From contig JAQUQI010000002.1 in NCBI GenBank assembly GCA_028716165.1, forward strand, positions 183,829 to 247,828: a stretch of DNA of 64,000 bases. The letters are read 5' to 3'. Each line of letters begins with the position of its first letter. The stretch's first letter is position 1. Of the stretch, positions 5,770-28,402 are shown in pieces. Both the position numbers and the translations under genes were made by a program. Source of the DNA: Candidatus Omnitrophota bacterium. Its GTDB lineage: Bacteria; Omnitrophota; Gorgyraeia; JABMRG01. Under the pieces are notes generated by a model, which did no database searches, was not told where the DNA came from, and was given only the letters and a program-made list of their open reading frames with translations.

Positions 5770-6226
5770 GGCGTCCTATTTGGACACACCCTATGTGCTC
5801 AATGGAAATGCCCCCTATCATCCAGAGTGGCCGAAGGCGGAGCAAGCGTCATACGCCTGTCATCCAGAGCGGCGATAATTGCAGCACGCGTCAGCCGCGA
5901 AGGATCTGGGAGTGAAATGAGTACTGAATTTTTCGTCGCGCCTTCGGCGCTCCTCTTAAATGACAGTGGTGACGTTCGGAATGACAGAAGTGGTGCTCGG
6001 AATGACAGAGGGTGACCCGCCTGAAAGTCAGTATTGGATTCCTCGCTTCGCTCGGAATGACAGGCGTTCTTCGCCTGTCATCCAGAGCGGAACCGGCAAA
6101 GTAAGAGTCGTTAGCGAAGGATCTGGGTGTGACTTCCGTGTGCCGTCCGGAGTGAGAGTACTAGATTCTTCGTCGCGCCTTCGGCGCTCCTCTGAATGAC
6201 AATAGGGATGCTCGGAATGACAAACG
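5770..6226. repeat. Mosaic repeat array 3. Terminal module E (GGCGTCCTATTTGG) is at the left end; CTCGGAATGACA-type units are at the right end.
   Basis: Direct reading. ORFs 5827..6015 and 5960..6199 are repeat-derived. Confidence 0.85.
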
Positions 6227-6234
6227 ATCTTGTC

Positions 6235-6813
6235 TCATTTAAGCTTTATGATTTTAGATTTAAAAATATTGTTCAGAAAAGGGTTCTTACCCTTTTTTTT
6301 CTTCTCAAACTCTTTATCGCTTAAGTTTATCACATTAAATTCGCGGCCTGTATCTTTCTGTAATATAGCGATGGCTCTTTGCAATTCCAAAACAGAATGT
6401 GTGCCAATAGCTAAAATATCTATATCGCTTGAAGAATCCATTTTGTTAGCCGCGTATGAACCGAATAAATAAGCTTCCTGAAGCCCTTTGATCCTATTAA
6501 CCATATCGCTAAGTTTTTTCTCTATACCGTAGGTTTTTAAGAATATTTGGCGATAATGCTCCAAAATCGGATTATTTTTCGCAAGGAAATAATATCTTTG
6601 CTTTCCACGAAACTCACTTTTTAAGAGGCCTCCTTTTTCCAATTCCTTAAGCTTGGTTTCGGTATTTTTAGGGTCAATTTCTAAAATCCTGGCCAACTCA
6701 TTAATGTAAGCCTGGGCATCGGGGTTAAGAAAAAAATAATCCAGCAATTTTATTGTTATTTTAGAACGAAAAGATATCATATTTTCACCATAATTATGGT
6801 AATAAATTACCAT
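6235..6813 (-). CDS. Winged-helix (ArsR-like) DNA-binding domain fused to a Pol-beta-type nucleotidyltransferase domain
   Basis: 192 aa. The N-terminal half is wHTH-like. The C-terminal half carries GSYAANKMDSSSDIDIL, the G[SG]x9-13Dx[DE] NTase signature. Confidence 0.55.
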   Translation of the reverse strand: MVIYYHNYGENMISFRSKITIKLLDYFFLNPDAQAYINELARILEIDPKNTETKLKELEKGGLLKSEFRGKQRYYFLAKNNPILEHYRQIFLKTYGIEKKLSDMVNRIKGLQEAYLFGSYAANKMDSSSDIDILAIGTHSVLELQRAIAILQKDTGREFNVINLSDKEFEKKKKGKNPFLNNIFKSKIIKLK

Positions 6814-6852
6814 AATTGTCTATTTTGTCAAGTGAATTATATGCGCGGTATT

Positions 6853-7088
6853 GGAGGCGTCCTATTTGCGGAAGTAAGACGAGTATTGGATTCTTCGTCG
6901 CGCCTTCGGCGCTCCTCTGAATGACAAGGCGTACTCCATGTGTCATCCAGAGCGGAACCGGCGAAGCCAGAGTCGTTAGCGAAGGATCTGGGGGTGAAAT
7001 GAGTACTGGATTCTTCGTCGCGCCTTCGGCGCTCCTCTGAATGACAGTGGTAACGCTCGGAATGACAAGCGAGGCTCGGAATGACACA
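6853..7088. repeat. Mosaic repeat array 4 (module E at the left end, reverse-orientation modules, CTCGGAATGACA units at the right end)
   Basis: Direct reading. ORF 6794..7096 is repeat-derived. Confidence 0.85.
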
Positions 7089-7118
7089 TGAGCCACCCCT
7101 ATAGCCTTTTAAGCCGCG

Positions 7119-7442
7119 TTATGACCTATCATTTAGACAGTTTTCAATATCCTTAAGGCGGGAATCAAAGTTGTCAAGGCGGTTTTCTATGTTTTCAAGG
7201 CGAGAATTTGTCTCAAGAAACCTGCGGGCAGTAAACTCATCAATACTTTCAAATATTATTAGCCCATTAACATCAGTTACTTGCGTTCCTTCCGGCACAA
7301 GCCGGTTTACAGAACCTACCTTTTTAAATTCCATACCCGGTTTGGGACCCACGCTTTGATTTTGCGGTTTGTCCTCGGCAAAAGAGCAGGTATTGACAGC
7401 AAATATCAATATCATTACGCATAATATAGCGGGTATTTTCAT
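7119..7442 (-). CDS. Small secreted hypothetical protein (signal peptide)
   Basis: 107 aa. N-terminal MKIPAILCVMILIFAVNTCSFA. C-terminal half is charged and coiled-coil-like. Confidence 0.4.
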   Translation of the reverse strand: MKIPAILCVMILIFAVNTCSFAEDKPQNQSVGPKPGMEFKKVGSVNRLVPEGTQVTDVNGLIIFESIDEFTARRFLETNSRLENIENRLDNFDSRLKDIENCLNDRS

Positions 7443-7443
7443 A

Positions 7444-8445
7444 TTATCCGCGTGCCCTTTCTGTTATTTTCATGATTTTATCAAAAACCTCATCAACCCT
7501 TATCTCCTGCATACACGGGCCAAAATCATGCCTTATCACGTCTTTGTTGCAAACTACATTCATCCCCGGACAGCACGGCATGCATGGCAAAGTTTTTGCG
7601 GCCCTTACTATGTTATGGCGGTGAAAATACGGATAAAAACAATCAATAGATGTCGGGCCGTATAGGCCTATGCTATTGATGCCCATACAGCTGGCAATGT
7701 GTAAAAGGCTTGAATCAGGCCCGATAAAGACATTGCACTTACTTATTAAGGCGATGGCCTGTTCTAAAGTAGTCTGGCCCGCCCTTATTATATCGGCCGA
7801 AAGCGATGACAATACGGTGCTTGAGAATTTACTCCCGTCACTCTTGCCAAGGGCGATTACTTTCAAGCCTTTTTCGCGCTTTAACCTGTCCGCTAAGCTG
7901 TTCCATCTTTCAACAGGCCAGCTTTTGAGCGTCCATGCCGCCAAAGGCATTATACCGGCGATGGCCTCGCCTTGCCTGATATTATTTTTTTTAAAAAAAT
8001 CAAGGGCGAAATCTTCGTCTTTTCGCGCGAGAGCAAAATCAAAACGCGCCGAAGGGCAATTTATCCCATTTTGCCTTAACAGGGCAAGATATCTATCAAC
8101 AGGGTGTATATGGGCATTTTTATTGTTCCCAACGCTCCATACCGAACGTGAGCGCAAAAAAACATATCTGGCAGAGCTTTTGAGCGCGATTGCCAGGTCA
8201 AAGTTTGTTTTTCTTAAACCCATGACAAACCTGGCCTGGTTTATAAAACCTTTGTCCGCGCCGCTCCTGTCATAGATTATCACATTATCTATGCCTCTGT
8301 ATCCTTCCACGAGTTCGCGGCAGCGCGGCGATGTCACAAAAGACAACACAGCGCCGGGATAGGCATCTTTCAAAGGCCGCACAACGGCCATATTATAGCA
8401 AACATCGCCGATATTGGAATGCCCGATAATCAGTATATTTTTCAT
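7444..8445 (-). CDS. Glycosyltransferase family 9 (ADP-heptose:LPS heptosyltransferase-like)
   Basis: 333 aa. N-terminal ILIIGHSNIGDV and overall architecture typical of RfaF/RfaC-type GT9 enzymes. Confidence 0.65.
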   Translation of the reverse strand: MKNILIIGHSNIGDVCYNMAVVRPLKDAYPGAVLSFVTSPRCRELVEGYRGIDNVIIYDRSGADKGFINQARFVMGLRKTNFDLAIALKSSARYVFLRSRSVWSVGNNKNAHIHPVDRYLALLRQNGINCPSARFDFALARKDEDFALDFFKKNNIRQGEAIAGIMPLAAWTLKSWPVERWNSLADRLKREKGLKVIALGKSDGSKFSSTVLSSLSADIIRAGQTTLEQAIALISKCNVFIGPDSSLLHIASCMGINSIGLYGPTSIDCFYPYFHRHNIVRAAKTLPCMPCCPGMNVVCNKDVIRHDFGPCMQEIRVDEVFDKIMKITERARG

Positions 8446-8451
8446 ACAAGG

Positions 8452-9396
8452 CTAAAAAGATATGTTAAAGGCTTCTTTGGCGCCGGGTTTTTTAAACGCG
8501 TGCCCTTCCGAGTCACATGGGTTGCAAAATCCATAATCATGACAGAGGAAAAAATCGGAAGGCATGCTGATGTTTAATCCTTTGCTGAATATATTGCCAA
8601 ATTTATCATTGTGCGCGGTATAAAGCTTGTAATGGCAATTATATATATCTCCGTTTGGGGCAAACAATACCTTGCCCATGCGGCAAAACATATCTTCTTT
8701 GTTCTTTTGGCTGAATCCCTGCCTGTAATCGGCATAATTGCGTATCCCGTCCTGCTGTTGACATTCAATATCGTAACCGTTTTCAACAGGATACAGGGTA
8801 TTTTTGTAATAGCCCGTAAAGCGCTGGAGCTTTACCAGCGGATGAGCCTTTAGCAGTTTGTCACGGTATCTTTTGACGTCGTCAATATGGTCAGGGTGGG
8901 CAACGATAAATATAATATGGACATACAGCCCCCCGTCTTTTACTCTTTTAAGGTTATCTATGAATTTATCAACGGGTGTATACAAAAAATGGTGTGAAAA
9001 ATTAAATTTCAGGCCCGAGCGCCGGCTTATGCTTTTAATGGACGAATTATTTCTGTAAAAGGGTGAAAATAAATTTGATGTCACGGTAATGGCCCAGTCC
9101 CTGTCAAGATTATTGACAATAAAGGCAAAATCAGGATGAAGCGTCGGCTCGCCGCCGGTTATGGAAATTTTTTTGCGTTTGGCTCTCCTTAAAAAACGCT
9201 TTTTTCTCCTGTTGGCAAGGCTGTTTAATGCCTCAACCCAATCAGCTCCCCGCCTTACGGGATATTTCGCCGCAGCGACCGCCGGGCAGGATATCTTTTG
9301 CACGCAATATTCACAGCTTAAAGTGCACGAGAGTGTTAAAAAAACACAGTAATAACTTTCAAATGATGCATCAATAACCTTTATATCTTTTTTCAC
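8452..9396 (-). CDS. Radical SAM domain protein
   Basis: CTLSCEYC (CxxxCxxC) near the N-terminus. A C-terminal Cys cluster (CHDYGFCNPC) is possibly an auxiliary cluster. 4-nt overlap with the downstream membrane glycosyltransferase. Confidence 0.55.
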   Translation of the reverse strand: MKKDIKVIDASFESYYCVFLTLSCTLSCEYCVQKISCPAVAAAKYPVRRGADWVEALNSLANRRKKRFLRRAKRKKISITGGEPTLHPDFAFIVNNLDRDWAITVTSNLFSPFYRNNSSIKSISRRSGLKFNFSHHFLYTPVDKFIDNLKRVKDGGLYVHIIFIVAHPDHIDDVKRYRDKLLKAHPLVKLQRFTGYYKNTLYPVENGYDIECQQQDGIRNYADYRQGFSQKNKEDMFCRMGKVLFAPNGDIYNCHYKLYTAHNDKFGNIFSKGLNISMPSDFFLCHDYGFCNPCDSEGHAFKKPGAKEAFNISF

Positions 9397-10580
9397 GCGT
9401 CACATCCTTTTGATTTAATGATTAGAAGCGCCCAGAACAGCAAAAGGCTTGAACATATTATCGCTCCATAATATTCAAACATTGCCTGGGCCGCTTTGCC
9501 GGCTATTGAATAACTTCCCGACGATGACAGCACGAACGAGGCAATCAGCAGAAAAAGAACCCCCCGCTCCTTAAAACCCCCTTTTAACAGATAATAAAAA
9601 ACTACTGTCAGGGGAAATACCATTGCCGCGAAGTTATGAAGCCAGGCATTGGGGTTAAAAAGCACCATGATTATAAAAAGCATGGCATAATCAACGCTCT
9701 GGATAAAAAGCGTTTTGCCGTTATTTTGCTTATCCTTCGGCGACGGTTTCAAGATTAAATAAAATGTCAATATGAAGATAACAACTGTTGCTATCAAGGC
9801 AGGCATCTCGTTTCCTGCCCCTGCCAGCCTTCTTGTTATGGTCCAAAGCGAATGGTTTTTAATATCAAGAAAAGACCCGCCGTCAAGAGATGTTGACGTG
9901 ATATGCGGAAGCCATTGCCCCAAAAGCGTGATATTGGCCTTAAAACCCGTGATAACCGACGGTAAAAAAGCGTAAAAGGCCATGGCCGCTATCACGGCGC
10001 ATGCCGCTTTTATTTTCTTTTTTGCCAAAAAATATAAAACAAACACAAATGGCATATACTTTATCATAACGGCAAAACCTATCAAGAAACCTGCCGCTAT
10101 ATCACGCCCGCGGCCTATAAGAAACAGCCCGTATAAAACCAAAAAGACTATTAAAATACCTACCTGGCCGCTGTGCAGGCAATGAAGAATTGACCTGAAT
10201 GATATCAAAAAAACCGCCGCGAAAACAAGATATTGGCGCCCTGAAGCCATTTTTTCAAAAAATATCATCCGGCGCGAGATCTCAAAGATCAAAAAAAGCC
10301 ATAACATGTTAAGGGTGAAAAATATTCCTGCCGAGACAGGTTTGCTAAATACCGATATAGGCGCCATAAATACCGCGAATACCGGAGCGTATTTAAAAGG
10401 GGTTATCTCATCGGCATTGTATTCATAGATACTTCTGCCTTCAAGCATGTCTTTTCCGGCGTCATAATATACGCGGTAATCCGAAAAACCTCTTTTTGGC
10501 GCGCGAACCTGATACTGGCATAGCAGTATCAGTGAAATCAACGCGAACACGGCAATATAGACTGCCCTATCTTTTTTCAT
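9393..10580 (-). CDS. Polytopic membrane protein, DUF2029/GT87-like putative glycosyltransferase
   Basis: 395 aa with multiple hydrophobic segments. The N-terminal region resembles DUF2029 mannosyltransferase-like proteins. Embedded between GT2 and radical SAM genes. Confidence 0.45.
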   Translation of the reverse strand: MKKDRAVYIAVFALISLILLCQYQVRAPKRGFSDYRVYYDAGKDMLEGRSIYEYNADEITPFKYAPVFAVFMAPISVFSKPVSAGIFFTLNMLWLFLIFEISRRMIFFEKMASGRQYLVFAAVFLISFRSILHCLHSGQVGILIVFLVLYGLFLIGRGRDIAAGFLIGFAVMIKYMPFVFVLYFLAKKKIKAACAVIAAMAFYAFLPSVITGFKANITLLGQWLPHITSTSLDGGSFLDIKNHSLWTITRRLAGAGNEMPALIATVVIFILTFYLILKPSPKDKQNNGKTLFIQSVDYAMLFIIMVLFNPNAWLHNFAAMVFPLTVVFYYLLKGGFKERGVLFLLIASFVLSSSGSYSIAGKAAQAMFEYYGAIICSSLLLFWALLIIKSKGCDA

Positions 10581-11304
10581 ATTGGCCTGTAATTGCCCTA
10601 ATTTTAATGATGAAAAGCCCCAAAAGCATTCTTAATGAATCTCTGATAACCCTTATCTTGGAATCTCTCCTGTTCAGCCATACCACAGGGACCGGCTTTA
10701 CGGCATAGCCCAAAAGGCCGGCAAGATACAAAATCTCTACATCAAAACAAAAACCCATATGCTTTTGCATTTTAAAAATGTCATGCGCCGCCCTCCGGGT
10801 AAATAGTTTGAATCCGCATTGGGTATCATGAAATTTTGTCAGGCCAAGCAGGCGCGTAATAAAATTAAAGACCCTTCCCATGCCGCGCCTCATAACAGTC
10901 TGGTTCAATATTACAGACCCTTTTGCCGTCCTTTCGCCGATAATAATGTCATAATTATCGGCCGTCAAGGCAAGCATCTTGTCAAGCTCTTCAATGGGGG
11001 TTGAAAGATCGGCATCACAAAAGGCGATATAATCCCCAGACGCGGCAAGCATACCGCAATTAACGCTAAAACCTTTACCCTTATTGACCGGGCTTGATAT
11101 GGCCCTTATCTGACAAAATCTACGCGCTAAATCCGCCACGATAACTCCGGTTTTATCGGAGCTGGCATCATTAACAACTATTATTTCAAAAGTAATTTTC
11201 TTGGCGGTAAAATACGCCAGTATTTTTTTTAAGTTTTGGGCAATTACCTTTTCTTCATTATATGCCGGTATTACCAGCGAAATGGATATACGATCGGTTG
11301 TCAT
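10567..11304 (-). CDS. GT2 family glycosyltransferase (polyprenol-phosphate sugar transferase-like)
   Basis: 245 aa. LVIPAYNEE...VNDASSD...CDADL motifs of GT2 / dolichol-P-mannose-synthase-like enzymes. Confidence 0.7.
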   Translation of the reverse strand: MTTDRISISLVIPAYNEEKVIAQNLKKILAYFTAKKITFEIIVVNDASSDKTGVIVADLARRFCQIRAISSPVNKGKGFSVNCGMLAASGDYIAFCDADLSTPIEELDKMLALTADNYDIIIGERTAKGSVILNQTVMRRGMGRVFNFITRLLGLTKFHDTQCGFKLFTRRAAHDIFKMQKHMGFCFDVEILYLAGLLGYAVKPVPVVWLNRRDSKIRVIRDSLRMLLGLFIIKIRAITGQYEKR

Positions 11305-11321
11305 TTTTTTAAGATGATTTT

Positions 11322-11924
11322 TTAAAGCCTGTTTTTTGACCCCGGCCGATACGCGCCGCGGCTGTCTTTGCCGCCCATATCATCATCACGGGTATATTCT
11401 TTACGGTTTCTCCACGTATCGTATATCATAATCAGCGCCTTCGTACTGCCGGTATCCATTACCCATTTTATGCCGCATATGCCGGAAACAAGCAGTAATT
11501 GCATAAAATATTTTTTAAATGCAAATGATAATGCCAAAAAAATACAACCTATAACCATAAAACTATTGCGTTTTAAGAAAGCCTTAAGACGGCCTCCCTT
11601 ATTTGCCCGGGCCAGTCCGGCCGCCCGTTTTCTGGCCAAGACCGAAGGCGCGGACAGGCCATAGACAGGGTAATCTTCTCCGTTAAGCGCCTTAAGGCTT
11701 ATGGCGACGGTATTAAAACATTTGGCGCAGGAGAGAACATGCTCCGATATCCTTTCCCGGACTTCAGGCGCCATATTATTACTGATGAAATCCGCCATTT
11801 CAATATCGCTTGGGCAGGGGCCGGCATCCTTTTGGCATCGCGCAGGTAAAAAAGATTTTCGTAAAATGTCTTCTGCCTTGCGGTTTATCTCTTCGCTGTC
11901 ATATCCCATAACCTTTTTCCTCAA
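11322..11924 (-). CDS. Putative zinc-finger (zf-HC2-like) anti-sigma factor with one transmembrane segment
   Basis: 200 aa. HVLSCAKCF motif and a TM segment (FMVIGCIFLALSFAF). Immediately downstream of, and overlapping, an ECF sigma gene. Confidence 0.5.
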   Translation of the reverse strand: MRKKVMGYDSEEINRKAEDILRKSFLPARCQKDAGPCPSDIEMADFISNNMAPEVRERISEHVLSCAKCFNTVAISLKALNGEDYPVYGLSAPSVLARKRAAGLARANKGGRLKAFLKRNSFMVIGCIFLALSFAFKKYFMQLLLVSGICGIKWVMDTGSTKALIMIYDTWRNRKEYTRDDDMGGKDSRGAYRPGSKNRL

Positions 11925-12492
11925 GCCTTTGCCGCAGGGCCTGTTTTAAGCGCGATATTATCGTTGAGACCGTATTAACGGGAATACCCATTATAAACGC
12001 TATTTCGCGGTGTTTCAATTGATGCACAAGCTCAAGGCTCATTACGCGCTGTTCCTTTTCGGTAAGGCCTTTTATGAATTCATTGATGGTTTCGCTAAGG
12101 CAATTATCTTCCGCGATATCCCTGGGCCCAATGCCAGGCCGAGGCTGATAAAGCTGGTTTTGCCGCCATGCCTGTTTAGTATTATCCTGGTGTATGTTTT
12201 CCCTGAAAAAATCTATCGTAGCATGTTGAGCAATTACCGTAAGGTATGCCGGGATGGACTTGGCCTTTGCTATGCGCTCAAGCGATTTCCTGCGCCAGAT
12301 ATTGGTAAACGTTTGCTGGTATATCTCATCTGCGTCATCCGACGACAGCCGCATAAAAAGAGACAATGCCTTGTGCCTTATGGCCCTGTTGACCAATGGG
12401 GTAAACATCTCAACAAACAAAGCCCAGGCATTATTATCTCCCTGCGCGCAAAGCCTGAAAATCTGCTCAAGGTCTTTTGTCTCATCAGGCAT
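11899..12492 (-). CDS. ECF-type sigma-70 family RNA polymerase sigma factor
   Basis: 197 aa. Region 2 (FFRENI...) and region 4 (HREIAFIMGIPVNTVSTIISRL) recognisable. 26-nt overlap with the anti-sigma gene. Confidence 0.7.
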   Translation of the reverse strand: MPDETKDLEQIFRLCAQGDNNAWALFVEMFTPLVNRAIRHKALSLFMRLSSDDADEIYQQTFTNIWRRKSLERIAKAKSIPAYLTVIAQHATIDFFRENIHQDNTKQAWRQNQLYQPRPGIGPRDIAEDNCLSETINEFIKGLTEKEQRVMSLELVHQLKHREIAFIMGIPVNTVSTIISRLKQALRQRLEEKGYGI

Positions 12493-12527
12493 AACCCGCC
12501 TCTTTCTTTACAGCGCGAGGCCGGGGG

Positions 12528-12767
12528 TTATTCAGCGAGTAGGTTGTTTTTTCTTAAGGCCTCTTCCAGGCTCATCACAGCCTTCTTAAACTGCGGGAAC
12601 AGTTCAATGTTCAAAGAAAGGCCTTTTGCCGTCGGTACCTTTGAACCGGCCTCTTTTGAATCAACCCAGACCCTAAGGTCTATAAGGTCAAAACCCTTAT
12701 ATTCTTTTATGCCTATTCTTATCTCCTCAAACTTATTCTTATTAAACGTGGCGATTGTTTCATTCAT
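12528..12767 (-). CDS. PC4/p15-like (YdbC-like) ssDNA-binding domain protein
   Basis: 79 aa. FEEIRIGIKEYKGFDLIDLRVW resembles the bacterial PC4-like family. Tentative. Confidence 0.4.
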   Translation of the reverse strand: MNETIATFNKNKFEEIRIGIKEYKGFDLIDLRVWVDSKEAGSKVPTAKGLSLNIELFPQFKKAVMSLEEALRKNNLLAE

Positions 12768-12789
12768 ACCTTACCTCCTTATTTATATA

Positions 12790-13263
12790 TTACCTTGCGA
12801 TCTCATTTAAAAAATTATTTAATACAACCCTGTCCTGATCGCTGATTTTTAAAAATCTGATACCGGCATTGAATACGCGCTCAATGCCGTTTTCGCCTTG
12901 CTGTATTTCATTGACCCAGACAGTCTCACCGGTAAGCCTGATATATCTGTTGTCCGGAATACCAATCTCCAGCTCAACTATTCCGCCCTGGGGTATCATT
13001 TCCGGGACAGACAGGCATATGCCCTCTCCCGAAACGTTTTTTGTAAAGGTTTTATAGGTGTATCCGGATTTACCCGGTATATTGCAATTCACATTAAGCT
13101 CTTTTTTAAACCTGCGGAACCTCCTTTTTTCTTCCGAATCATCCCAATAGCCGCCGAGTGTTGCTTTTACCTGAGAAAAATTTCTGACCCGTTGGCGCCA
13201 AAGCAAAAAAATAACGCTTGAAAATGTAATTACAATAACAAGAAATGAAAGGATATTTCTCAT
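12790..13263 (-). CDS. Membrane-anchored PilZ domain protein (c-di-GMP receptor candidate)
   Basis: 157 aa. N-terminal TM helix, RRFRR (RxxxR) and NVSGEG (D/NxSxxG) PilZ motifs. Confidence 0.6.
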   Translation of the reverse strand: MRNILSFLVIVITFSSVIFLLWRQRVRNFSQVKATLGGYWDDSEEKRRFRRFKKELNVNCNIPGKSGYTYKTFTKNVSGEGICLSVPEMIPQGGIVELEIGIPDNRYIRLTGETVWVNEIQQGENGIERVFNAGIRFLKISDQDRVVLNNFLNEIAR

Positions 13264-13598: not shown

Positions 13599-13704
13599 TA
13601 ATTACCCCTTTCTATTTATACTAATTATAATACTATACATATAGGAGTGTCAATTGATTAGTAGTATTAAATTCAATTTAAAATAAACGTCTAAGGCGCG
13701 GAGG

Positions 13705-14076
13705 AAGGATACAGTACTGATTTTACTCCCAGATCCTTCGCTAACGACTCTTGTCTCGCCGGTTCCGCTCAGGATGACATAAGGGTCACCCCCAGATCCT
13801 TCGCGACCGAGGCGTGCTTTGCTTGGCTGTCGCTCTGGATGACAGGCAAAGAACGCCTGTCATTCCGGGCGCTCCACTCTGTCATTGGGAGCGCCTCGCT
13901 TGTCATTCAGAGGAGCGCCGAAGGCGCGACGAAGAATCTAGTACTCATTTCACTTCCAGATCCTTCGCTAACGAAACTTGCTTCGCCGTTCCCGCTCAGG
14001 ATGACAGGCAAAGTACGCCTGTCATTCCGAGCGAAGCGAGGAATCTAATACTCTCACTCCGAACGGCACATACGGA
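13705..14076. repeat. Mosaic repeat array 5 (forward-orientation modules, ends with CTCACTCCGAACGGCACATACGG)
   Basis: Direct reading. ORFs 13814..14152 and 13839..14048 are repeat-derived. Confidence 0.85.
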
Positions 14077-14131
14077 TTACTTCGGATGGCATAGTACGAA
14101 GGATGCCTTAAAACAGGACATTTGCAACAAC

Positions 14132-14170: not shown

Positions 14171-14191
14171 ATCTAACTTCTAAGAAATTTA

Positions 14192-16304: not shown

Positions 16305-16630
16305 AAGCGGCTCTGTCATTGGGAGCAAAGCGAGGAATCCAGTACTCATTTCACGCCCAGATCCTTCGCGGCCGAGGCGTGCTTCGCCTTGTGCCGCTCT
16401 GGATGACAGGTGGGGTACTCCCAGATCCTTCGCGGCCGAGGCGTGCTTTGCTTGGCTGTCGCTCTGGATGACAGGTGGGGTACTCCCAGATCCTTCGCGG
16501 CCGAGGCGTGCTTCGCCTTGTGCCGCTCTGGATGACAGGCGAAGAACGCCTGTCATTCCGAGCAAAGCGAGGAATCTAATACTCGTCTCACTCCAGAAAT
16601 AGGACGCTTGCAATACTCGATACCCGCGAT
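16305..16630. repeat. Mosaic repeat array 6 (forward-orientation modules; module E in reverse, CAAATAGGACGC, at the right end)
   Basis: Direct reading. ORFs 16236..16613 and 16276..16602 are repeat-derived. Confidence 0.85.
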
Positions 16631-16631
16631 A

Positions 16632-18049: not shown

Positions 18050-18192
18050 AGTCCCTCTTATTTATGTTGCTGATTGTTCAATTAATGATACGGTTACAGC
18101 AAATAGCAACGATACGGTTCCGGACAGATTAAAAGATAAAAGCCAATATAATTTATGATACGGTTAGTGTATTAATTAAGAAAATTTCAAAT

Positions 18193-18618
18193 CACTTCCA
18201 GATCCTTCGCGGCCAACGCCTGCTCCGATTATTGCCGCTCTGGATGACATAAGGGTCACGTCCAGATCCTTCGCGGCTCACTCTTGCCCCGATTATCGCC
18301 GCTCTGGATGACAGGCGCATGACACTGGCCCCGCCCCCCGCTGCTCTGGATGACACGTGGGTTACCCCCTGTCATTCAGAGGAGCGCCGAAGGCGCGACG
18401 AAGAATCCAGTACTCATTTCACTCCCAGATCCTTCGCTAACGAAGCTTACCTCGCTGATACCGCTCTGGATGACACAGGGGTCACGTCCAGATCCTTCGC
18501 GGCTTACTCTGGCCTCGCAGCCTGCCGCTCTGGATGACACATGGGCAACGTCTGTCATTGGGAGCGAAGCGAGGGATCTAGTACTCTCACTTCAAACGAC
18601 AAGTACGAGTCACTCCAA
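18193..18618. repeat. Mosaic repeat array 7, abutting the 3' end of tRNA-Arg
   Basis: Direct reading. ORFs 18319..18537, 18350..18622 and 18376..18558 are repeat-derived. Confidence 0.85.
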
Positions 18619-18626
18619 TTAAAGAT

Positions 18627-18702
18627 GGTGCCCCTACCGCGACTCGAACACGGCCACATGGTTTAGGAAACCACTGCTCTATCCATCTGAGCTATAGGGG
18701 CA
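18627..18702 (-). tRNA. tRNA-Arg (anticodon CCU), with encoded 3' CCA
   Basis: Read from the minus strand: GCCCCTATAGCTCAGATGGATAGAGCAGTGGTTTCCTAAACCATGTGGCCGTGTTCGAGTCGCGGTAGGGGCACCA. The 7-bp acceptor stem GCCCCTA/TAGGGGC, D-arm GCTC/GAGC, anticodon loop TTCCTAA and T-arm GTTCGAGTC were folded by eye. Confidence 0.75.
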
Positions 18703-18717
18703 ATTAGAATCAAAATC

Positions 18718-20081: not shown

Positions 20082-20220
20082 ATTGTAGTCTCCTGTTCAA
20101 AAAAAGTTTTACTTGTTGTCCAAATCAATATCTTTCAAGGTATCAAACGTATTTACGCCTCCAGGCAGGCTTTTTTAAAAAGCTTTGCCCGGAGGCACCA
20201 TCACGCTTGAACAATAGACG

Positions 20221-22890: not shown

Positions 22891-22944
22891 TTACTCTTCC
22901 TCCTTTAAATCAGCGCCTTTGCCTTTTAGAGCAAACAGTTCGCC

Positions 22945-25101
22945 TTATTTACCCTGCCGCGGTTTTACAGCAGGGCCTTTGCGTGAATTATCTTTATTTT
23001 CAACCGCTATCAATGACAAATTCGCTATATTGTCCGTATAAAGCTTATTGATAGCGGACAACAAGGCCAAACGGTTGGCCCTGACACGCTTATCGTCAAC
23101 GTTTACCATCACTTTATCAAAATAATCCCCAAGATCGCCGGATAGCGCCGCTGCAATATTATCCGTCGCTTTGGAGAAAAGGCCCTCTTTGCATAGAGCC
23201 ATAAATTCGTCTTTTGTGTTGTTAAACCCGCCAAAGACCTTATTTTCCTGTTCCTGGGAAAACAATTTTTCGTCTATCTCCGGAAGGCTTATGCCCGCCG
23301 CCGCGACGATATTGTGTGTCCTTTCAACAATAACACGCGCCTGTTCAAATTCAGGACTATTGATTATACTATTTAACTCATTTAATTTCAAGCAAGTTTT
23401 ATATATATCATCCGCTCCGCTTGCCATTACGGATTCTATCAGGTCATGGCGGTATTGCCCCTTAGCTTTCAGGATTGATACAAGCCTGTCTTTTAAAAAT
23501 AATTGTATTGCCTGCCGGCATTTGGATTTTGTTTCAGAGCCGGCATACTGCTCAAGGCAGAAGTCAATGACCCCTGATAAAGACAATGATTTTTTAGTTT
23601 CCATGAGGATCAAAATTATTCCTATTGCCTGGCGCCTTAAAGCGTATGGATCCCAATTACCTTTGGGGGATTTGCCTATGCTAAAATAAGACACGATATT
23701 ATCAAATTTATCGGCAAGCGAAAACAGCGAACCCATATCCGTGGAAGGCAGTTTGTCCGAGGCAAAACGCGGAAGATAGTGCTCGGATATGGCCCGGGAA
23801 ACAGCGTCTGGATATCCGCTGTCCTTGGCGTAATACATGCCCATAATTCCCTGCAGGCTCGGGAATTCTCTGACCATAGACGTAAGCAGGTCTGCCTTAA
23901 GCAAAGGCGCGGCCTTGGCAATATCATTTTCATCAATGCCGGGATAATAATTCCGCGATATAAAGAGCGCTATTTTTTTTATCCTTTGCGCCTTATCGTG
24001 AATTGTCCCCAGGCCTTTGTAAAAAACTATGCCGTCAAGGCCTTGTGCCCATTCCGTAAGCGGCTTTTTTGTGTCTGATTTATAGAAAAACAGCGCGTCT
24101 TTAAGTCTTGCCTCAAGAACGTTTTCAAAGTTTTTGATTATTTGTTTTGTGTTTTTTTTGGCCCCGTTCAATACCCCTGCGAAGCGGCTGGCAAGGGCTG
24201 AATTTTTATCTTCAAGGCAGAATATCCTCTGATGTTTGGACATGGCGGCAAGCAGGACCTCGCGCGGTATCTGAAGATATTTTTTGTCAAAAGAGCCTTC
24301 TATAAAACAGGGCTTTTCAACGAGATTGACCACCTCGGAAAGCAATTCGTCATTTGGATGCCAGCGTTTTTTCTCAAGGAAAGAAAGAATGATCTTTCTT
24401 CGCTCATTATTGTCCCAGACAACATGATTTTTCTTAAGAGTTTTAAAATAATGGCAGGGATTTTTTACTTTTATAAAATCCCTGCCGAGAAACCTGTGGC
24501 CGCGGGTGGCATTTGACGATTTTATGCCGGCATATTCAAACGACAATACCTTGTCTCCGAACAGGGCCACAATCCATCTGATGGGCCTTGAAAAAGCCGC
24601 CCCTGTGCCATTCCATCTCATTGTTTTGGCAAAATTCATAAGGCCTGCTATTTTGGCAAGCGCAGAAGGCAGTATTCCGGCATTTGATATATCCTGTCTT
24701 TTGATTGAAACCCTCAAATCTCCGGAGCCGGCGGCGGCAGGCTTTATAATGTCGCTTATAGCGGCATTGTTCTTTTTAAGAAACGCCTCCAGGGCCTTGG
24801 TCGGCCTGTTCTGCTCATCATAGGCTATCCTTACAGGCGGGCCTTCAATAAGCATATCCTGGCAAAGCGGTATATCGCTTATATGCAGTATAAGCCTGCG
24901 CGGCGTCGCGTAGGCGGATGCCTTGCTGTATTTTATATTGTTTGAGAGAAATAAAGCCTCTATGGGACTGCCTTTACGAAAAGCCAGCGACTCAAGCGCC
25001 GCGTCAAGGTCATGGGACGGCAGTTCCTCTGTGCCTATTTCAAGTATCAGATCTGTTGTGCTCATTTTGTTCCATGTAAAGCCTGGCGCAGGCGCGGGCA
25101 A
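22945..25101 (-). CDS. glyS: Glycine--tRNA ligase beta subunit
   Basis: Typical GlyS start DLILEIGTEELP. The true start is probably the Met at about 25065, giving a small overlap with glyQ. Confidence 0.85.
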   Translation of the reverse strand: MPAPAPGFTWNKMSTTDLILEIGTEELPSHDLDAALESLAFRKGSPIEALFLSNNIKYSKASAYATPRRLILHISDIPLCQDMLIEGPPVRIAYDEQNRPTKALEAFLKKNNAAISDIIKPAAAGSGDLRVSIKRQDISNAGILPSALAKIAGLMNFAKTMRWNGTGAAFSRPIRWIVALFGDKVLSFEYAGIKSSNATRGHRFLGRDFIKVKNPCHYFKTLKKNHVVWDNNERRKIILSFLEKKRWHPNDELLSEVVNLVEKPCFIEGSFDKKYLQIPREVLLAAMSKHQRIFCLEDKNSALASRFAGVLNGAKKNTKQIIKNFENVLEARLKDALFFYKSDTKKPLTEWAQGLDGIVFYKGLGTIHDKAQRIKKIALFISRNYYPGIDENDIAKAAPLLKADLLTSMVREFPSLQGIMGMYYAKDSGYPDAVSRAISEHYLPRFASDKLPSTDMGSLFSLADKFDNIVSYFSIGKSPKGNWDPYALRRQAIGIILILMETKKSLSLSGVIDFCLEQYAGSETKSKCRQAIQLFLKDRLVSILKAKGQYRHDLIESVMASGADDIYKTCLKLNELNSIINSPEFEQARVIVERTHNIVAAAGISLPEIDEKLFSQEQENKVFGGFNNTKDEFMALCKEGLFSKATDNIAAALSGDLGDYFDKVMVNVDDKRVRANRLALLSAINKLYTDNIANLSLIAVENKDNSRKGPAVKPRQGK

Positions 25102-25903
25102 GTTCGCGCACCCTGGCTATATAAGAAGCTCTCTCGGTAACCGAGACCGCGCCGCGGGCATCTAAAAGGTTAAAGGTATGTGATGTTTTAAGCATATATT
25201 CATAAGCAGGAAGCAGAAGCCCGGTTTTTATAAGCCTGGCTGATTCTTTCTCATAAATATCAAAAAGCCCTGCCGCCATTACGGGATCAAGTTGTTCAAA
25301 ATTGTACGCGGAGCCTTCTTTTTCCTGTTGATAATGCATATCCGCGTATGTAGTATCCTTGTTCCATTGTATGGAAAAAACATCGGTTTTACGCTGTAAA
25401 AACATGGCTATTCTCTCAAGCCCGTATGTTATCTCACACGAAACATTCTTAAGCTCAATTCCGCCCATCTGCTGGAAATATGTAAATTGCGTTATCTCAA
25501 GGCTGTCAAGCCAGACCTCCCAGCCAAGCCCGCTGGCTCCAAGCGTAGGCGATTCCCAGTCATCCTGGACAAACCTTATGTCATGCTGTCTGCAGTCTAT
25601 GCCGATATGACGCAGGCTGGCAAGGTATGATTCCTGTATATCGCAAGGAGCGGGTTTTATCAGGACCTGATACTGATAGTATCTCTGCATCCTTAAAGGG
25701 TTATCGGCAAACCTTCCGTCAGCCGGCCTGCGCGAAGGCTGGACGAAGCCTACACGCCATGGTTTATCGTCAAGGCTTTTGAAAAAAGTCAAAGGATGAA
25801 ATGTGCCTGCACCGATTTCAATATCATAGCCATGGGCTATTACCGCGCCGGCCTGTTTCCAGAATCCGTTAAGCCTTTCTATAATATCATGAAAATATAT
25901 CAT
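25040..25903 (-). CDS. glyQ: Glycine--tRNA ligase alpha subunit
   Basis: 287 aa. FQDIIERLNGFW... highly conserved GlyQ sequence. Confidence 0.9.
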   Translation of the reverse strand: MIYFHDIIERLNGFWKQAGAVIAHGYDIEIGAGTFHPLTFFKSLDDKPWRVGFVQPSRRPADGRFADNPLRMQRYYQYQVLIKPAPCDIQESYLASLRHIGIDCRQHDIRFVQDDWESPTLGASGLGWEVWLDSLEITQFTYFQQMGGIELKNVSCEITYGLERIAMFLQRKTDVFSIQWNKDTTYADMHYQQEKEGSAYNFEQLDPVMAAGLFDIYEKESARLIKTGLLLPAYEYMLKTSHTFNLLDARGAVSVTERASYIARVRELARACARLYMEQNEHNRSDT

Positions 25904-25924
25904 AATGTCCTTGTGCTATTTCTT

Positions 25925-26263
25925 GCGCTCGCCTGCCCGTCACGCAAGGGGCAGTACCAGATCCTTCGCGGCCTACTCTGGCCTCGCCTCCTGCCGCTCT
26001 GGATGACAGACAGAGTACGTCTATCATTCCGAGCGAAGCGAGGAATCTAATACTTGTCTGCCCGCTACGCAAGGGGCAGTACCAGATCCTTCGCGGCCAA
26101 GGCGTGCTCTGCCTTCCGCCGCTCTGGATGACATAATATGACTCGTGCCCCGCTTATTGCCGCTCTGGATGACATAATATGACTCATGCCCCGCTTATTG
26201 CCGCTCTGGATGACAGACAGAGTACGTCTGTCATTCCGAGCGAAGCGAGGAATCTAATACTCG
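25925..26263. repeat. Mosaic repeat array 8, with an internal 41-bp tandem duplication (26119-26200)
   Basis: Direct reading. ORFs 25887..26072, 26179..26511 (5' part) and 26184..26369 are repeat-derived. Confidence 0.85.
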
Positions 26264-26265
26264 CC

Positions 26266-26838
26266 TTACTCATCAATACTTGTCTCAACATGTTGCGCCA
26301 TAAGCTCGCCAACCTGATACGGCACCTTGGTAATAAAATAATGCTCGGTGATAACATGGCCCAGCTCATGCGCCATGATACCGCGCGCTATGGTGCTTTC
26401 GCAGGTATATATTGTTTTGAGAGCATGTATATAATAAGATACCAGTTCCTGGCCTTCTATTTTTTTACCAATCCGGACAAGGTTGTCATTAAGCTGTTTT
26501 TGATTTTTTAATATCCTTATATCAATCTTGACATTTCTCGGATACATATCCAATATTCTGCAAGCCTTTAAGAAAAGGCTGTCAAATTCATCGGCAAAGC
26601 CTTTGTCTGTATAAGGTTTTGATGAGCCGAACAATCCAAACAATGAGTCACCCGATGAAGCTATGCGCCTAAAAGTTTTTTCCTTATTGACATCAGCGCC
26701 TACAATAAGCCTTACATATTTGCCGTCAATGTATTGCGCTAAGGTTTCAGAATTTGTATCCTGCCCAAGGCAAATGCCCACGTTCAAAAGACAGGCGGCC
26801 AGGCAAAGAGATATCGCGATCCCCGTCGTTTTAATCAT
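26266..26838 (-). CDS. Lipoprotein with HExxH motif (putative zinc metallopeptidase)
   Basis: 190 aa. Lipobox ISLCLAAC. MAHELGHVITEH near the C-terminus. Family not recognised. Confidence 0.4.
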   Translation of the reverse strand: MIKTTGIAISLCLAACLLNVGICLGQDTNSETLAQYIDGKYVRLIVGADVNKEKTFRRIASSGDSLFGLFGSSKPYTDKGFADEFDSLFLKACRILDMYPRNVKIDIRILKNQKQLNDNLVRIGKKIEGQELVSYYIHALKTIYTCESTIARGIMAHELGHVITEHYFITKVPYQVGELMAQHVETSIDE

Positions 26839-27431
26839 TTACCGTCGGTTTTAAAATAATTTAATTTTTCAGACAGTTCTTTTATTCTGCCGGCTAAATT
26901 ACCCAGCCCGTTTTCCAGAAAATTGCCGGGATTATTCTTATCTATCTTTGATATGTCATCATTAATGCCTGACATTATTTTTTTCATCTCGGACAGCTTT
27001 TCCGATAAAACTTTTGCTATACTATTGACGCCTTCAGCCATATCCTGCGCCTGGTCTGTTGAGCGCAATTTTATATAAGCCGTAAGGTCGCCGTTTCCTA
27101 TCTGGTTCAGGCGGTGTTCTATATTAAACATAGCCCCTGCTATCCTGTGGCTCATATACATTACCACAAGAGTCGTTATGATGCCCATTACAAAAAGCAC
27201 CAAAAGGACCGCCCAGATTAATGCCGGTAAGATATAATCGGATGTATTGACTATGGAAAGGCGTGAATGGATAAATGATGTTGTAGTGCTTGACCTGGAA
27301 TACAGATAAAGCCCCAATGCCGATACCGCCAGGCCTATACCCATAAGCAGGCAGAACCTTAATATAAATATGCCCTGAAATTTCTTTTTGATAAAATAAT
27401 TTTTTCTTCTGGAGTCTTTTTGACCTATCAT
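26835..27431 (-). CDS. Membrane protein with HAMP domain
   Basis: 198 aa. Two TM segments followed by a HAMP-like linker (HRIAGAMFNIEHRLNQIGNGDLTAYIKLRSTDQAQDMAEGVN). No output domain. Confidence 0.45.
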   Translation of the reverse strand: MIGQKDSRRKNYFIKKKFQGIFILRFCLLMGIGLAVSALGLYLYSRSSTTTSFIHSRLSIVNTSDYILPALIWAVLLVLFVMGIITTLVVMYMSHRIAGAMFNIEHRLNQIGNGDLTAYIKLRSTDQAQDMAEGVNSIAKVLSEKLSEMKKIMSGINDDISKIDKNNPGNFLENGLGNLAGRIKELSEKLNYFKTDGK

Positions 27432-27898
27432 TTCGCGTCCTCCAATACGCGCAAAAACTTATCTACGCGCGCTTTTTTATACAGCTTATTATACCAACTC
27501 TGCATCATCTTGGCTTTTTCGCTGTCAGAAAGGCCTTGTTTGCCGGATATCTCCCGGTCTTTCCTGTCTAAAAGCTCTTTTCTTAGGGCATGCTTCCAGT
27601 AGCGCTCTATTGTTTTCATAAAAGTTTTTTCTTTGTCAAGGCCCAGCCTTTGCGCCTCCTGGACAAGTATTTCGTTTGCTATGATATCATCCAACATCTG
27701 CTCGCCGCTTAATACGCCTTTTTTACCCATATATGTTGTGTCAAGTTCTGACTTATAGTCTTCAACGGTCATGTAATAGTCGTTAATTCTGGCGACTGTT
27801 TTTTGGGGGTCATATTTTTTACCACAGCCGCATAAAAAAACCGGTAATATAAGAAGGACGGCTGATAAAATATTTATTATTGTTGGAAGAGTTTTCAT
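27428..27898 (-). CDS. Lipoprotein with SurA N-terminal-like chaperone domain
   Basis: 156 aa. Lipobox LPVFLCGC. VARINDYYMTVEDY...ILVQEAQRLGL resembles the SurA/PpiD N-terminal domain. Confidence 0.4.
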   Translation of the reverse strand: MKTLPTIINILSAVLLILPVFLCGCGKKYDPQKTVARINDYYMTVEDYKSELDTTYMGKKGVLSGEQMLDDIIANEILVQEAQRLGLDKEKTFMKTIERYWKHALRKELLDRKDREISGKQGLSDSEKAKMMQSWYNKLYKKARVDKFLRVLEDAK

Positions 27899-27940
27899 AT
27901 TGCCTCCAATTTTGTCAGTCTGATTATAACCCCGCCCGCT

Positions 27941-28400
27941 ATTTGGGGCAAAACGCCTGTCACTCCAAGCGCTACATCTGTCATTCCGGACGGTACATAC
28001 GGGTCAATCCCAGATCCTTCGCGGCCTACTCTGACCCCGACTCCTGCCGCTCTGGATGACAGGTGAAGTACACCTGTCATTCCGAGCGAAGCGAGGAATC
28101 TAATACTCGTCTCACTCCCAGATCCTTCGCGACCGAGGCGTGCTTTGCTTGGCTGTCGCTCTGGATGACACATGGGTCAACTTTGTCATTCAGAGGAGCG
28201 CCGAAGGCGCGACGAAGAATCTAATACTGGCTTCACTTCCAGATCCTTCGCTAACGACTCTTGCCTCGCCGGTTCCGCTCTGGATGACAGGAGCATGACG
28301 CTTACCCCGACTCCTGCCGCTCTGGATGACAGGCGGGATACTTCCCGTTGAGCACGCAGGGTGTCTCCAAATAGGACGCCTGCGATATTCGATATTGCGA
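27941..28400. repeat. Mosaic repeat array 9 (forward-orientation modules; module E reverse, CCAAATAGGACGCC, at the right end)
   Basis: Direct reading. ORF 27895..28173 is repeat-derived. Confidence 0.85.
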
Positions 28401-28402
28401 TA

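Follow-up and report, generated by a model that had tools for sequence, protein, structure and literature searches.

We found that twelve intergenic arrays of hairpin units occupy ~6.7% of the window, that is, of the whole 64,000-nucleotide stretch of Candidatus Omnitrophota DNA that was analysed. It is quite likely that these arrays are clusters of oriented repeats which belong to the CGTC/TGTC-tagged REP superfamily and are a divergent counterpart to NTS/dRS3 of Neisseria, and that their cognate enzyme is probably a 92-residue GIY-YIG nuclease. Most arrays lie just 3′ of a gene's stop codon. The features are collected in the table below.

Features of the repeat arrays and associated gene in the window
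Feature	Position	Strand	Description
Array 1	216..500	.	X< Y2> X< Xs< Y1>
Array 2	795..1085	.	hL> Y1> X< Xs< hL> Y1>
Array 3	4640..5050	.	partial Xs, Xs> X> X-head Y2< X> Y1< h< h< X-head; comM upstream
Array 4	5763..6222	.	E-long, Xs> X> Y1< h< h< / Y2< X> (T linker) Y1< h<
Array 5	6849..7086	.	E, Y1< X> Y1< h< h<
Array 6	13693..14110	.	partial Y1 tail, X< X< h> h> Y1> X< Y2> T
Array 7	16313..16631	.	Y2'> X< X< X< Y2>, then E (reverse strand)
Array 8	18190..18625	.	X< X< Xs< Y1> X< X< Y2'> T; abuts tRNA-Arg(CCT) 3′ end
Array 9	25930..26265	.	hairpin linker, X< Y2> hairpin linker X< Xs< Xs< Y2>
Array 10	27958..28402	.	h> h> (T-like) X< Y2> X< Y1> X< Xs<, then E-long (reverse strand)
Array 11	42531..42883	.	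X> X> Y1< X> Y1< h< h< h<
Array 12	48468..48860	.	h> Y2> X< Xs< X< X< Xs< Y1>
E copy 1	5763..5783	+	TATTGCAGGCGTCCTATTTGG; runs on ~35 nt into Xs head
E copy 2	6849..6869	+	joined to tail-to-tail linker and Y1 tail
E copy 3	16595..16615	-	18/19 in shifted core, degenerate in 14-mer; right after PHP-domain gene stop codon
E copy 4	28367..28387	-	runs on ~35 nt into Xs head; right after recO stop codon
Clearest head-only run	42830..42883	-	three 21-nt units TGTCATTGCGAA+CGTCACTTC, directly 5′ of complete Y1
Internal head-only unit	996-1033	+	38 nt; second hL of array 2
Internal head-only run	5975..6007	-	two h units within array 4
Internal head-only run	13858..13891	+	two h units, X head to Y1 head, array 6
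T module (CTCAC..ACG)	14053-14075		array end
T module (CTCAC..ACG)	18586-18609		array end
T module, internal	6134..6157	-	CTCACTCCGGACGGCACACGGAAG; long tail-to-tail linker in array 4
ssn-like gene	486..764	-	92-aa single-domain GIY-YIG nuclease (predicted); between arrays 1 and 2

The arrays are built from three classes of hairpin unit, X (52 nt, TGTCATCCAGAGCGGC…GCCGCGAAGGATCTGG), Y1 (42 nt) and Y2 (30 nt, TGTCATTCCGAGCGAAGCGAGGAATC), with 54 complete copies in the window: 29 X, 23 Y and two variant Y1 units that were identified by eye. In each unit the 5′ tag, (T/C)GTC, is unpaired, the stem starts on A-T and T-A pairs, the interior varies, and a ..AT-C(C/T)A tail closes the unit. Across the 29 X and 23 Y complete units, tags, stems and tails do not vary. 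The inner stem carries tandem G.A mismatches in Y2, an extra GCGCC/GGCGC hairpin in Y1 and a loop of ~21 nt in X. The X stem pairs were present in 93% of cells, with 7 double-sided changes; the pairing percentage was matched by 1 of 500 shuffles and the covariation measures by 3-4 of 500, and every slid register fell far below the true one. In Y1-like units from contigs that range over 34-76% GC, the core is conserved and the outer 5-bp stem shows covariation (TTGC/GCAA, TTCC/GGAA, TCCT/AGGA, TCGC/GCGA, TCCC/GGGA). Hairpin stability was ordinary compared with shuffles (z -1.45 to +0.95).

X and Y units are always on opposite strands (54/54 complete copies, in every array). The basic block is a heterodimer in which X forward is joined by a conserved tail-to-tail linker, YARTACTCATTTCACTCCCA, to Y reversed, so that both 5′ tags point outward, and blocks are concatenated head to head via 13-15 nt spacers. 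The arrays are polar because they are assembled in this way, and the polarity with unlike sides that an earlier note had described was borne out by the placement of its module E and by the distribution of head-only runs given below. Array 4 reads as a fusion of two polar blocks.

From this polarity the earlier note had gone on to suggest a non-autonomous mobile element. The corresponding reading, in which each array is a copy of a MITE-like non-autonomous transposon with defined asymmetric termini, E on one side and CTCGGAATGACA-type units on the other, mobilised whole, we consider very unlikely. Module E is best defined as TATTGCAGGCGTCCTATTT, of which four copies with at most one mismatch were found, at 5763 (+), 6849 (+), 16597 (-) and 28369 (-), with 0.04 expected by chance. 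The 14-mer GGCGTCCTATTTGG occurs exactly at 5770-5783 (+) and 28367-28380 (-) and with 13/14 matches at 6856-6869 (+) (~0.44 matches expected by chance; at least three reached in 0/100 shuffles), in agreement with the forward copies reported near 5771 and 6855 and the reverse-complemented copy near 28369. The fourth, reported near 16590, matches the original 14-mer at only 11/14 positions and is recovered once the module is shifted outward to TATTGCAGGCGTCCTATTT. Every one of the four copies is found at the edge of an array and, with X read forward, they share one side and one orientation, which favours the transposon reading. However, E marks an extremity in 4 of the 12 arrays and is lacking from the other eight, no copy was found among 152 related loci, and its neighbour is of two kinds, since two of the arrays join it to an Xs head and the remaining two to a Y tail linker. 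We describe E as a cap, 20-55 nt long, that is specific to this lineage and sits on the X-upstream side.

At the opposite extremity, where short tandem units had been described, the CTCGGAATGACA-type motif gave 82 matches at up to two mismatches against 3.9 expected, most of them the heads of complete X and Y units; the site at 16309-16325 is likewise the head of a complete Y2. The true CTCGGAATGACA-type units are the 5′ half of Y alone, always directly 5′ of a Y head, and six of the sites claimed for them proved genuine (4988-5020, 6211-6222, 7056-7086, 27958-27990, 42830-42883 and 48468-48479). The h (21 nt) and Xs (41 nt) units are tandem duplications of the pre-tag spacer, tag and 5′ arm, and each is followed directly, on its 3′ side, by a complete unit that matches it in type and orientation; for the clearest run, TRF gave a period of 21, 3.3 copies and 95% matches. 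Head-only runs were found at 6/7 edge-facing Y heads vs 3/18 inward-facing ones (Fisher p=0.003), and half-units overall at 9/11 vs 9/43 (p=3e-4), in a small sample from a single window whose heads were classified by hand and post hoc. The enrichment of head-only runs is at the edges opposite E, as the transposon reading has it, but three such runs are internal. The same half-unit grammar recurs in a sister lineage (L019, L024, L041). The T module, also proposed as an end module, does occupy two array ends, but a third copy is internal, and the copies diverge from one another by more than 3 mismatches.

Internal h, Xs and T modules are not expected of a discrete element, and neither is the finding that the unit string differs in every array, with no string or length shared among the 12. 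Terminal inverted repeats are absent from the arrays. Target-site duplications, a suggested check, did not emerge either, the longest word shared by the two flanks averaging 4.4 nt within an array vs 4.6 nt in cross-array controls. Since the arrays are unlike one another, carry E in a third of cases and have no target-site duplication, they are not discrete transposons, nor a new kind of transposon. The accompanying phrase "site-specifically generated structure" remains a fair description, as the half-unit duplications span the cut point expected of an Ssn-type enzyme.

The comparison with empty sites in relatives did give a positive result, one that the transposon reading also accommodates. 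In the syntenic relative L067 the arrays are absent at orthologous sites, and short array-free intergenic regions stand at the sites of arrays 6, 7 and 8 (~35 nt in the case of array 7). Array 6 separates a terminator from a promoter that adjoins it in L067. These data support the arrays being insertions relative to L067. Another possibility is that the arrays act mainly as RNA, as 3′-UTR terminators, mRNA stabilisers or processing sites, with their conservation reflecting this role and the nuclease gene incidental. The intergenic position, mostly just past a stop codon, the ability of the units to form hairpins and the proposal of such roles for REPs in the available literature would fit; this RNA-level reading is compatible with our main explanation. 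As the principal function we think it unlikely: the ancestral terminator is still in place, downstream of array 6, the arrays are oriented inconsistently with respect to the preceding gene (X is the sense-strand unit in 9 and Y in 3), the arrays have no Rfam match, and the hairpin energies are ordinary. The unpaired conserved tag and strict strand asymmetry suit protein recognition of one DNA strand, and N. meningitidis SsnA is described as not binding RNA in the available text of Chenal et al. 2025, Nat Commun 16:2388 (PMC11893778).

A candidate for such a protein is encoded between arrays 1 and 2. The 92-aa product matches Pfam GIY-YIG PF01541 (E=2e-15, residues 3-75), and P0001, which is identical to it, carries the name 'GIY-YIG nuclease family protein [Candidatus Omnitrophica bacterium]'. 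Among solved proteins its closest relatives belong to UPF0213, at E=5e-5 only. Read from the translation, Y7, Y17 and E64 correspond to Y6/Y17/E64 mutated in N. meningitidis SsnA, where changes at the counterparts of Y17 and E64 inactivate the enzyme (PMC11893778, available text). Y1 units stand on either side of the gene (448-489 and 832-873). Homologues of 54-55% identity in L022 and L036 are also bracketed by such units, and one of 71% identity in L151 by X-like/Y-like heterodimers. The gene is, as predicted from its sequence, an instance of the NTS-ssn-NTS arrangement of Ssn ssDNA nucleases and, in a search confined to the 64-kb window, probably encodes the cognate enzyme of the arrays.

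The available text of Chenal et al. describes the NTS as CGTCATTCCCGCGMAVGCGGGAATCYRG (Y2 here being TGTCATTCCGAGCGAAGCGAGGAATCTAA), a 94-aa single-domain GIY-YIG protein that cuts ssDNA upstream of this motif, and motifs on both sides of the gene in 42% of homologues. The likeness to NTS/dRS3 extends to the hairpin repeats, which are oriented, start with GTCAT, form an ATTCC...GGAAT stem and have a C following the palindrome, to copies in their hundreds that cluster around genes, and to a repeat-bracketed single-domain GIY-YIG gene of ~92-94 aa. In contrast to Neisseria, three unit classes coexist here in strict X/Y alternation, the inner stems carry G.A mismatches, an extra hairpin or the ~21 nt loop, complete units reach a density of ~1 per 1.2 kb, and the host is an Omnitrophota MAG whose nuclease activity is predicted. 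The published degenerate SRM search pattern matched 0 units and gave one spurious match in the window.

According to the available text of Di Nocera, De Gregorio and Rocco 2013, BMC Genomics 14:522 (PMC3733652), CGTC REPs have a CGTC/TGTC tag, a stem starting AT and a 3-nt tail resembling CCA, are organised head to head and as heterodimers, lack a transposase, and include Neisseria dRS3, which forms large mosaic clusters. Our units share the 5′ CGTC/TGTC tag, A and T first in the stem, the CCA-like 3-nt tail, head-to-head and tail-to-tail dimers with frequent heterodimers, the intergenic location and the absence of transposase. They differ in that stems measure 8-9 bp and loops 4-5 nt in the defined families, whereas units here are 30-52 nt with interrupted stems, X and Y1 being longer and less regular; those families seldom cluster, while units here are nearly all in large clusters; and Omnitrophota is absent from the phyla listed. 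In the available text of neither paper did we find mention of head-only tandem runs or an E cap.

Alternating-orientation mosaics with conserved linkers, a REPIN-like doublet block and a small nuclease gene between its own repeats also recall E. coli-type REP/BIME and RAYT systems, as far as these are described in the available text of Nunvar 2010 (PMC2817692) and Bertels and Rainey 2011 (PMC3116915). The arrays could then be classical REP/BIMEs mobilised in trans by a RAYT (IS200/IS605-like Y1 HUH) encoded elsewhere in the genome, and the alternating units with conserved head-to-head and tail-to-tail linkers do amount to a BIME mosaic (PMC2817692; PMC3733652). We find this very unlikely: the tag is (T/C)GTC, here TGTC, instead of GTAG, the array-embedded gene encodes a GIY-YIG nuclease rather than a Y1 HUH transposase, neither Y1_Tnp (and so no RAYT) nor a transposase of any other family was found among the ~47 ORFs of the window, and CGTC-type REPs are reported without RAYT association (PMC3733652).

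Under the preferred reading of tagged repeats with a cognate GIY-YIG nuclease, and by analogy with Ssn of N. meningitidis, N. elongata, N. wadsworthii and Wolbachia, the nuclease would bind the folded unit, on the tag strand only, in single-stranded DNA arising in replication, repair or transformation, and would cut a few nucleotides 5′ of the tag. Since h and Xs lie immediately 5′ of a like complete unit, each spans the predicted cut site, and they may be scars of cut-and-repair or slippage there, a reading drawn from position in a small, hand-classified sample. Their accumulation at array edges follows from the tags-outward layout, in which each edge of a block is a 5′ side. These tandem half-units across the predicted cut site are the only new lead. 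Together, the arrays and the nuclease are a divergent, unusually regular variant of the system described in 2025, in which intergenic sites that vary are marked by the arrays, and accessory genes are bracketed by them, just as variable or accessory genes are by NTS clusters in Neisseria (PMC11893778, available text).

The window is a core chromosomal region encoding comM, the glycyl-, aspartyl- and histidyl-tRNA synthetases, dnaE, groES/EL, PPDK and recO, and 12 intergenic arrays (numbered from left to right) of 230-460 nt each occupy about 4.3 kb of it (6.7%). The arrays are assembled from three types of complete hairpin unit, X, Y1 and Y2, with 54 complete copies in the window. Each unit begins at its 5' end, the head, with an unpaired tag, which is TGTC in 27 of 29 X copies (CGTC in the other two) and in 22 of 23 Y copies (TATC in one). 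The AT...AT stem opening was invariant across units, and the 3' tails read CCA, CTA or CTG. The Y2 stem comprises 9 positions, including two G.A mismatches, and closes on a 3-nt loop, while Y1 and X have interrupted stems and loops that reach about 21 nt. X stem pairing was kept in 93% of cells among the window copies, with modest covariation, and the stability of the hairpins was not unusual. Exact matches to the Y1 core were found in metagenome contigs of 34-76% GC, and in most of these the core was framed as GTCAT-xyz-core-z'y'x'-ATC, with a covarying outer stem.

Hairpin units, positions of features in the window, and array sites in the relative L067
Feature	Position in window	Size	Details
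X unit		51-53 nt	TGTCATCCAGAGCGGC-(about 21 variable nt)-GCCGCGAAGGATCTGG; 29 copies
Y1 unit		42 nt	TGTCATTCAGAGGAGCGCCGAAGGCGCGACGAAGAATCYAR; 12 copies, plus 2 variants
Y2 unit		30 nt	TGTCATTCCGAGCGAAGCGAGGAATCYAR; 11 copies
Y1 unit, one side of GIY-YIG gene	448-489
GIY-YIG gene	486-764	92 aa	between arrays 1 and 2
Y1 unit, other side of GIY-YIG gene	832-873
Internal h runs	996-1033; 5975-6007; 13858-13891
Truncated X heads	4808; 5033		array 3
X plus linker (example)	4871-4935		quasi-palindromic
comM to about 11.3 kb	4640-11300	about 6.7 kb	only about 1.7 kb in L067
Array 8 region	18586-18701		stops about 17 nt from the tRNA-Arg(CCT) 3' end
Accessory block	25904-28402	2.5 kb	array 9, three ORFs (190, 198 and 156 aa), array 10
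Y unit with TATC tag	26021
Giant ORF	48893-63961 (-)	at least 5022 aa	start near window end
Array 6 site in L067			promoter-like box adjoins terminator hairpin; both flank array 6 in the window
Array 7 site in L067		about 35 nt	intergenic DNA
Array 8 site in L067		65 nt	from gene start to the same tRNA-Arg

In all arrays X and Y lie on opposite strands, an alternation kept by 54 of 54 complete units. A conserved linker, YARTACTCATTTCACTCCCA, occupies the tail-to-tail junctions, and head-to-head junctions are spacers of 13-15 nt, e.g. GGCGAAGAACGCC. This makes a heterodimer the natural building block: X in forward orientation, then the linker, then Y reversed, with the 5' TGTC tags of both units pointing outward. 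The same X-like/Y-like heterodimer was present as isolated doublets in another genome (L151), and three loci of a sister lineage from one metagenome sample (L019, L024 and L041) carried diverged versions of the complete units and of the head-only half-units h and Xs in an identical grammar. About 30 complete units lie on the minus strand and about 24 on the plus strand, GC skew is negative over nearly the entire window, and from these counts no clear strand bias of the tags was apparent. Separately, X together with its 3' tail-to-tail linker is quasi-palindromic at every X, the opposite strand reading GGTCACTCCCAGATCC... and thus presenting a second tag-like GTCAC; because of this, X may be a fused inverted pair with one common loop. 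The variable X loop is also modular (alignment A1, columns 15-40): a few types of 5' half and 3' half occur in varying combinations, the 5' half GCGATAATTG, for example, pairing with either ...GTCAGCCGC or ...GTCGTTAGC, which suggests recombination or conversion among units.

Such units resemble the CGTC-tagged REPs, for which Di Nocera 2013 (PMC3733652) gives a CGTC or TGTC tag, a stem opened by A and T, a 3-nt CCA-like tail, a head-to-head and heterodimer arrangement without a transposase, and dRS3 of Neisseria, found in large mosaic clusters, as a named member. The window units share the tag, stem opening and tail as well as the arrangement and the absence of a transposase, neither a transposase nor a Y1_Tnp domain having been found among the ORFs of the 64 kb. 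However, the same source gives CGTC families stems of 8-9 bp and loops of 4-5 nt, to which the window units do not conform, X and Y1 exceeding that size range. REP/BIME systems with RAYT also combine alternating units with conserved linkers, but their tag is GTAG and their enzyme a Y1 (HUH) transposase.

CGTC-type REPs have long been said to lack a dedicated enzyme, and in the literature drawn on here the link to the Ssn nucleases was made only in 2025 and the Ssn family was studied in Neisseria and Wolbachia only. Chenal 2025 (PMC11893778) describes the Ssn enzymes as GIY-YIG proteins of about 94 aa made up of that single domain; their target, an oriented hairpin motif (NTS/SRM), is bound in ssDNA only, and the cut falls a few nucleotides upstream of it. 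In that paper, motifs lie on both sides of 42% of ssn homologues, and N. meningitidis uses the system to restrict transforming ssDNA as it enters. Like these loci, the window has a single-domain GIY-YIG gene of the 90-100 aa class with hairpin repeats on either side. PF01541 is the sole domain of its product (residues 3-75, E=2e-15), and Y7, Y17 and E64 align with the mutated Y6, Y17 and E64 of N. meningitidis SsnA. The protein has 6724 homologues of similar length, and it resembles the solved UPF0213 proteins only weakly. One homologue (L022) lies between thiG and leuB in the order unit - gene - inverted unit, and another (L036) is flanked on both sides by tail-to-tail doublets. Two homologues with 71-75% identity to the window protein were observed within defence loci, one between hsdM/Schlafen-like and Piwi (pAgo) genes (L149, 10001-10312), the other between hsdM and hsdS with X-like/Y-like doublets on either side of it (L151, 10001-10279). 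Window Y2 has GTCATTCC...GGAATC in common with the Neisseria NTS, yet the published SRM pattern, HGTCWYN(0-2)YYVSBRHN(0-5)WNVSBRGN(0-2)RNCYNB, matched 0 of 54 complete units and gave a single, spurious match in 64 kb. To judge by sequence, the arrays belong to the known CGTC-REP/NTS-Ssn kind as a divergent and unusually regular variant, and the units and GIY-YIG gene match the system of Chenal et al. 2025.

The earlier note had described the arrays as polarised composites with a distinct module at each extremity. Module E, claimed as a 14-mer in four copies, was found twice exactly and once at 13 of 14 positions (0.44 expected), and the fourth copy failed as a 14-mer; with the core shifted outward to TATTGCAGGCGTCCTATTT, four copies with at most one mismatch were obtained against a chance expectation of 0.04. 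All four lay at an array edge, in agreement with the claim that E is confined to one extremity, and, with X taken as forward, they shared both side and orientation. The neighbours of E are of two kinds. In two arrays (4 and 10) a conserved tract of about 35 nt connects it to a head-only X; in the other two (5 and 7) it abuts a tail-to-tail linker plus a Y tail. It was missing from the other 8 of 12 arrays and absent from all 152 related loci retrieved and from the sister lineage, and a scan of viral contigs with E plus its longer tract gave no matches. A sigma-54 promoter was ruled out for E by spacing (by eye). A hairpin was likewise rejected, one copy folding well (z=-3.2) and the other not (z=-0.26), and a consistent structure is therefore lacking.

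The tandem CTCGGAATGACA units placed by the earlier note at the opposite extremity are the reverse complement of TGTCATTCCGAG, that is, the tag and 5' stem arm of Y. These free-standing 21-nt half-units (h) recur in runs whose TRF period is about 21 nt; read by eye, the repeat is a 12-nt head plus 9 nt of consensus CRYCACYWC, and the latter resembles the usual spacer 5' of a Y head. X has a head-only counterpart of 41 nt, Xs. Nearly every partial unit has a complete unit of matching type and orientation directly 3' of it, the exceptions being the two truncated X heads of array 3 and, in array 10, the two h units of the left edge, which run into an X tail. With heads classified by hand as edge or internal, h runs accompanied 6 of 7 edge-facing and 3 of 18 inward-facing Y heads (p=0.003), and with X and Y pooled head-only runs accompanied 9 of 11 edge-facing against 9 of 43 inward-facing heads (p=3e-4). 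The terminal preference held, while three h runs were internal; each array containing one reads as a pair of polar blocks set end to end. The other proposed terminal module, T, is the tail-to-tail linker in a longer form. Arrays 6 and 8 have it as their terminus; in array 4 it is internal. As a conserved terminus it was discarded, because of this internal copy and because only one copy came within 3 mismatches of the consensus.

Comparison with relatives showed that the arrays are insertions. L067, a MAG labelled Planctomycetia with 81% identity in PPDK, is syntenic with the window from 35.5 to 11.3 kb (about 24 kb) and contains no repeat heads. Where the window has arrays 6, 7 and 8, the intergenic DNA of L067 is free of arrays, which provides the empty sites that had been sought; E, T and h are therefore all part of the added material. 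Base-precise junctions were not obtained because the sequences have diverged. The block formed by arrays 9 and 10 and the three ORFs between them, which had no confident Pfam match, is missing from L067 and from a second relative, L068, in both of which recO and glyQ abut (adjacent or overlapping); it is an accessory cassette bracketed by arrays. The stretch running from comM to about 11.3 kb holds arrays 3-5, small toxin-antitoxin-like genes (DUF2283, HTH-nucleotidyltransferase) and glycosyltransferases. In L067 the tRNA-Arg next to which array 8 stops has no array. Array 12 directly follows the stop codon of the giant ORF, whose C-terminal 3000 aa had no Pfam match.

The earlier note's observation is thus confirmed in part and its interpretation borne out in part: the arrays are polar, inserted and site-specifically patterned. 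They are not discrete MITE-like transposons with fixed ends, since the twelve arrays are twelve different strings of units and only 4 of 12 carry E. Nor was the expected target-site duplication seen: the longest word common to an array's own flanks averaged 4.4 nt and that of the cross-array controls 4.6 nt, a test that very short duplications could escape because array boundaries are fuzzy. An integron attC/cassette origin for the small inter-array genes was also rejected, there being no GTTRRRY core site and many units, not one, per intergenic region.

The exact Y1 38-mer had 0 matches in species-representative genomes, which means that this collection lacks close relatives with arrays; the Y1 core had 0 matches in viral contigs, the sequence strings matched only unrelated primers in the literature, and Rfam at gathering thresholds found only tRNA in the window. 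Exact-protein look-ups returned no record for ComM and PPDK, and for the porin and the GIY-YIG protein only window-identical contigs of 2.4-2.8 kb, broken at arrays, which yielded neither population polymorphism nor an additional genome. Two short-read assemblies of the same organism (L147 and L148; SRR22315506 and JGI 3300037067) were 100% identical to the window, and L147 ends inside array 7 on one side and array 6 on the other. Repeats of this kind thus break up assemblies, and MAGs will under-represent them. In eight unrelated metagenome contigs (L013, L030, L032, L035, L049, L058, L059 and L066) a conserved tract, roughly GTCAAAGRGTTAYGG...ATATTT, was observed about 37 nt 5' of a unit, and in L032 and L013 a large serine recombinase ORF was near the unit; an integrative element that targets the repeat may end in this tract.

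By homology, the nuclease would act on ssDNA, where it would recognise the tag strand of X and/or Y and cut immediately 5' of TGTC. From their position, the h and Xs runs would be tandem duplications across this predicted cut site, and since they span it they may be repair or slippage scars; edges would collect them because a block with its tags outward exposes its 5' sides. A bolder proposal, to which we assign only a slim chance, is that the arrays grow by a nuclease-driven process and not by transposition. Ssn would cut again and again a few nucleotides 5' of the tag, and slippage or repair by template switching would then yield the 21-nt and 41-nt tandem duplications of spacer, tag and 5' arm and eventually new units, with the polar X/Y heterodimer and its E cap as the replicating block. 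If true, the amplifier so long missing for CGTC-type REPs would turn out to be a small GIY-YIG ssDNA nuclease.

In this Omnitrophota genome, a divergent, highly regular version of the system makes up about 7% of a core chromosomal region, and surveys using the published SRM pattern, which misses this version, undercount such genomes. The half-unit duplications over the predicted cut site offer a concrete handle on the origin of the arrays. In addition, the three co-resident natural variants of the putative substrate (30, 42 and 52 nt) bear on the specificity of one small ssDNA nuclease, and on the biotechnological uses proposed for Ssn enzymes.
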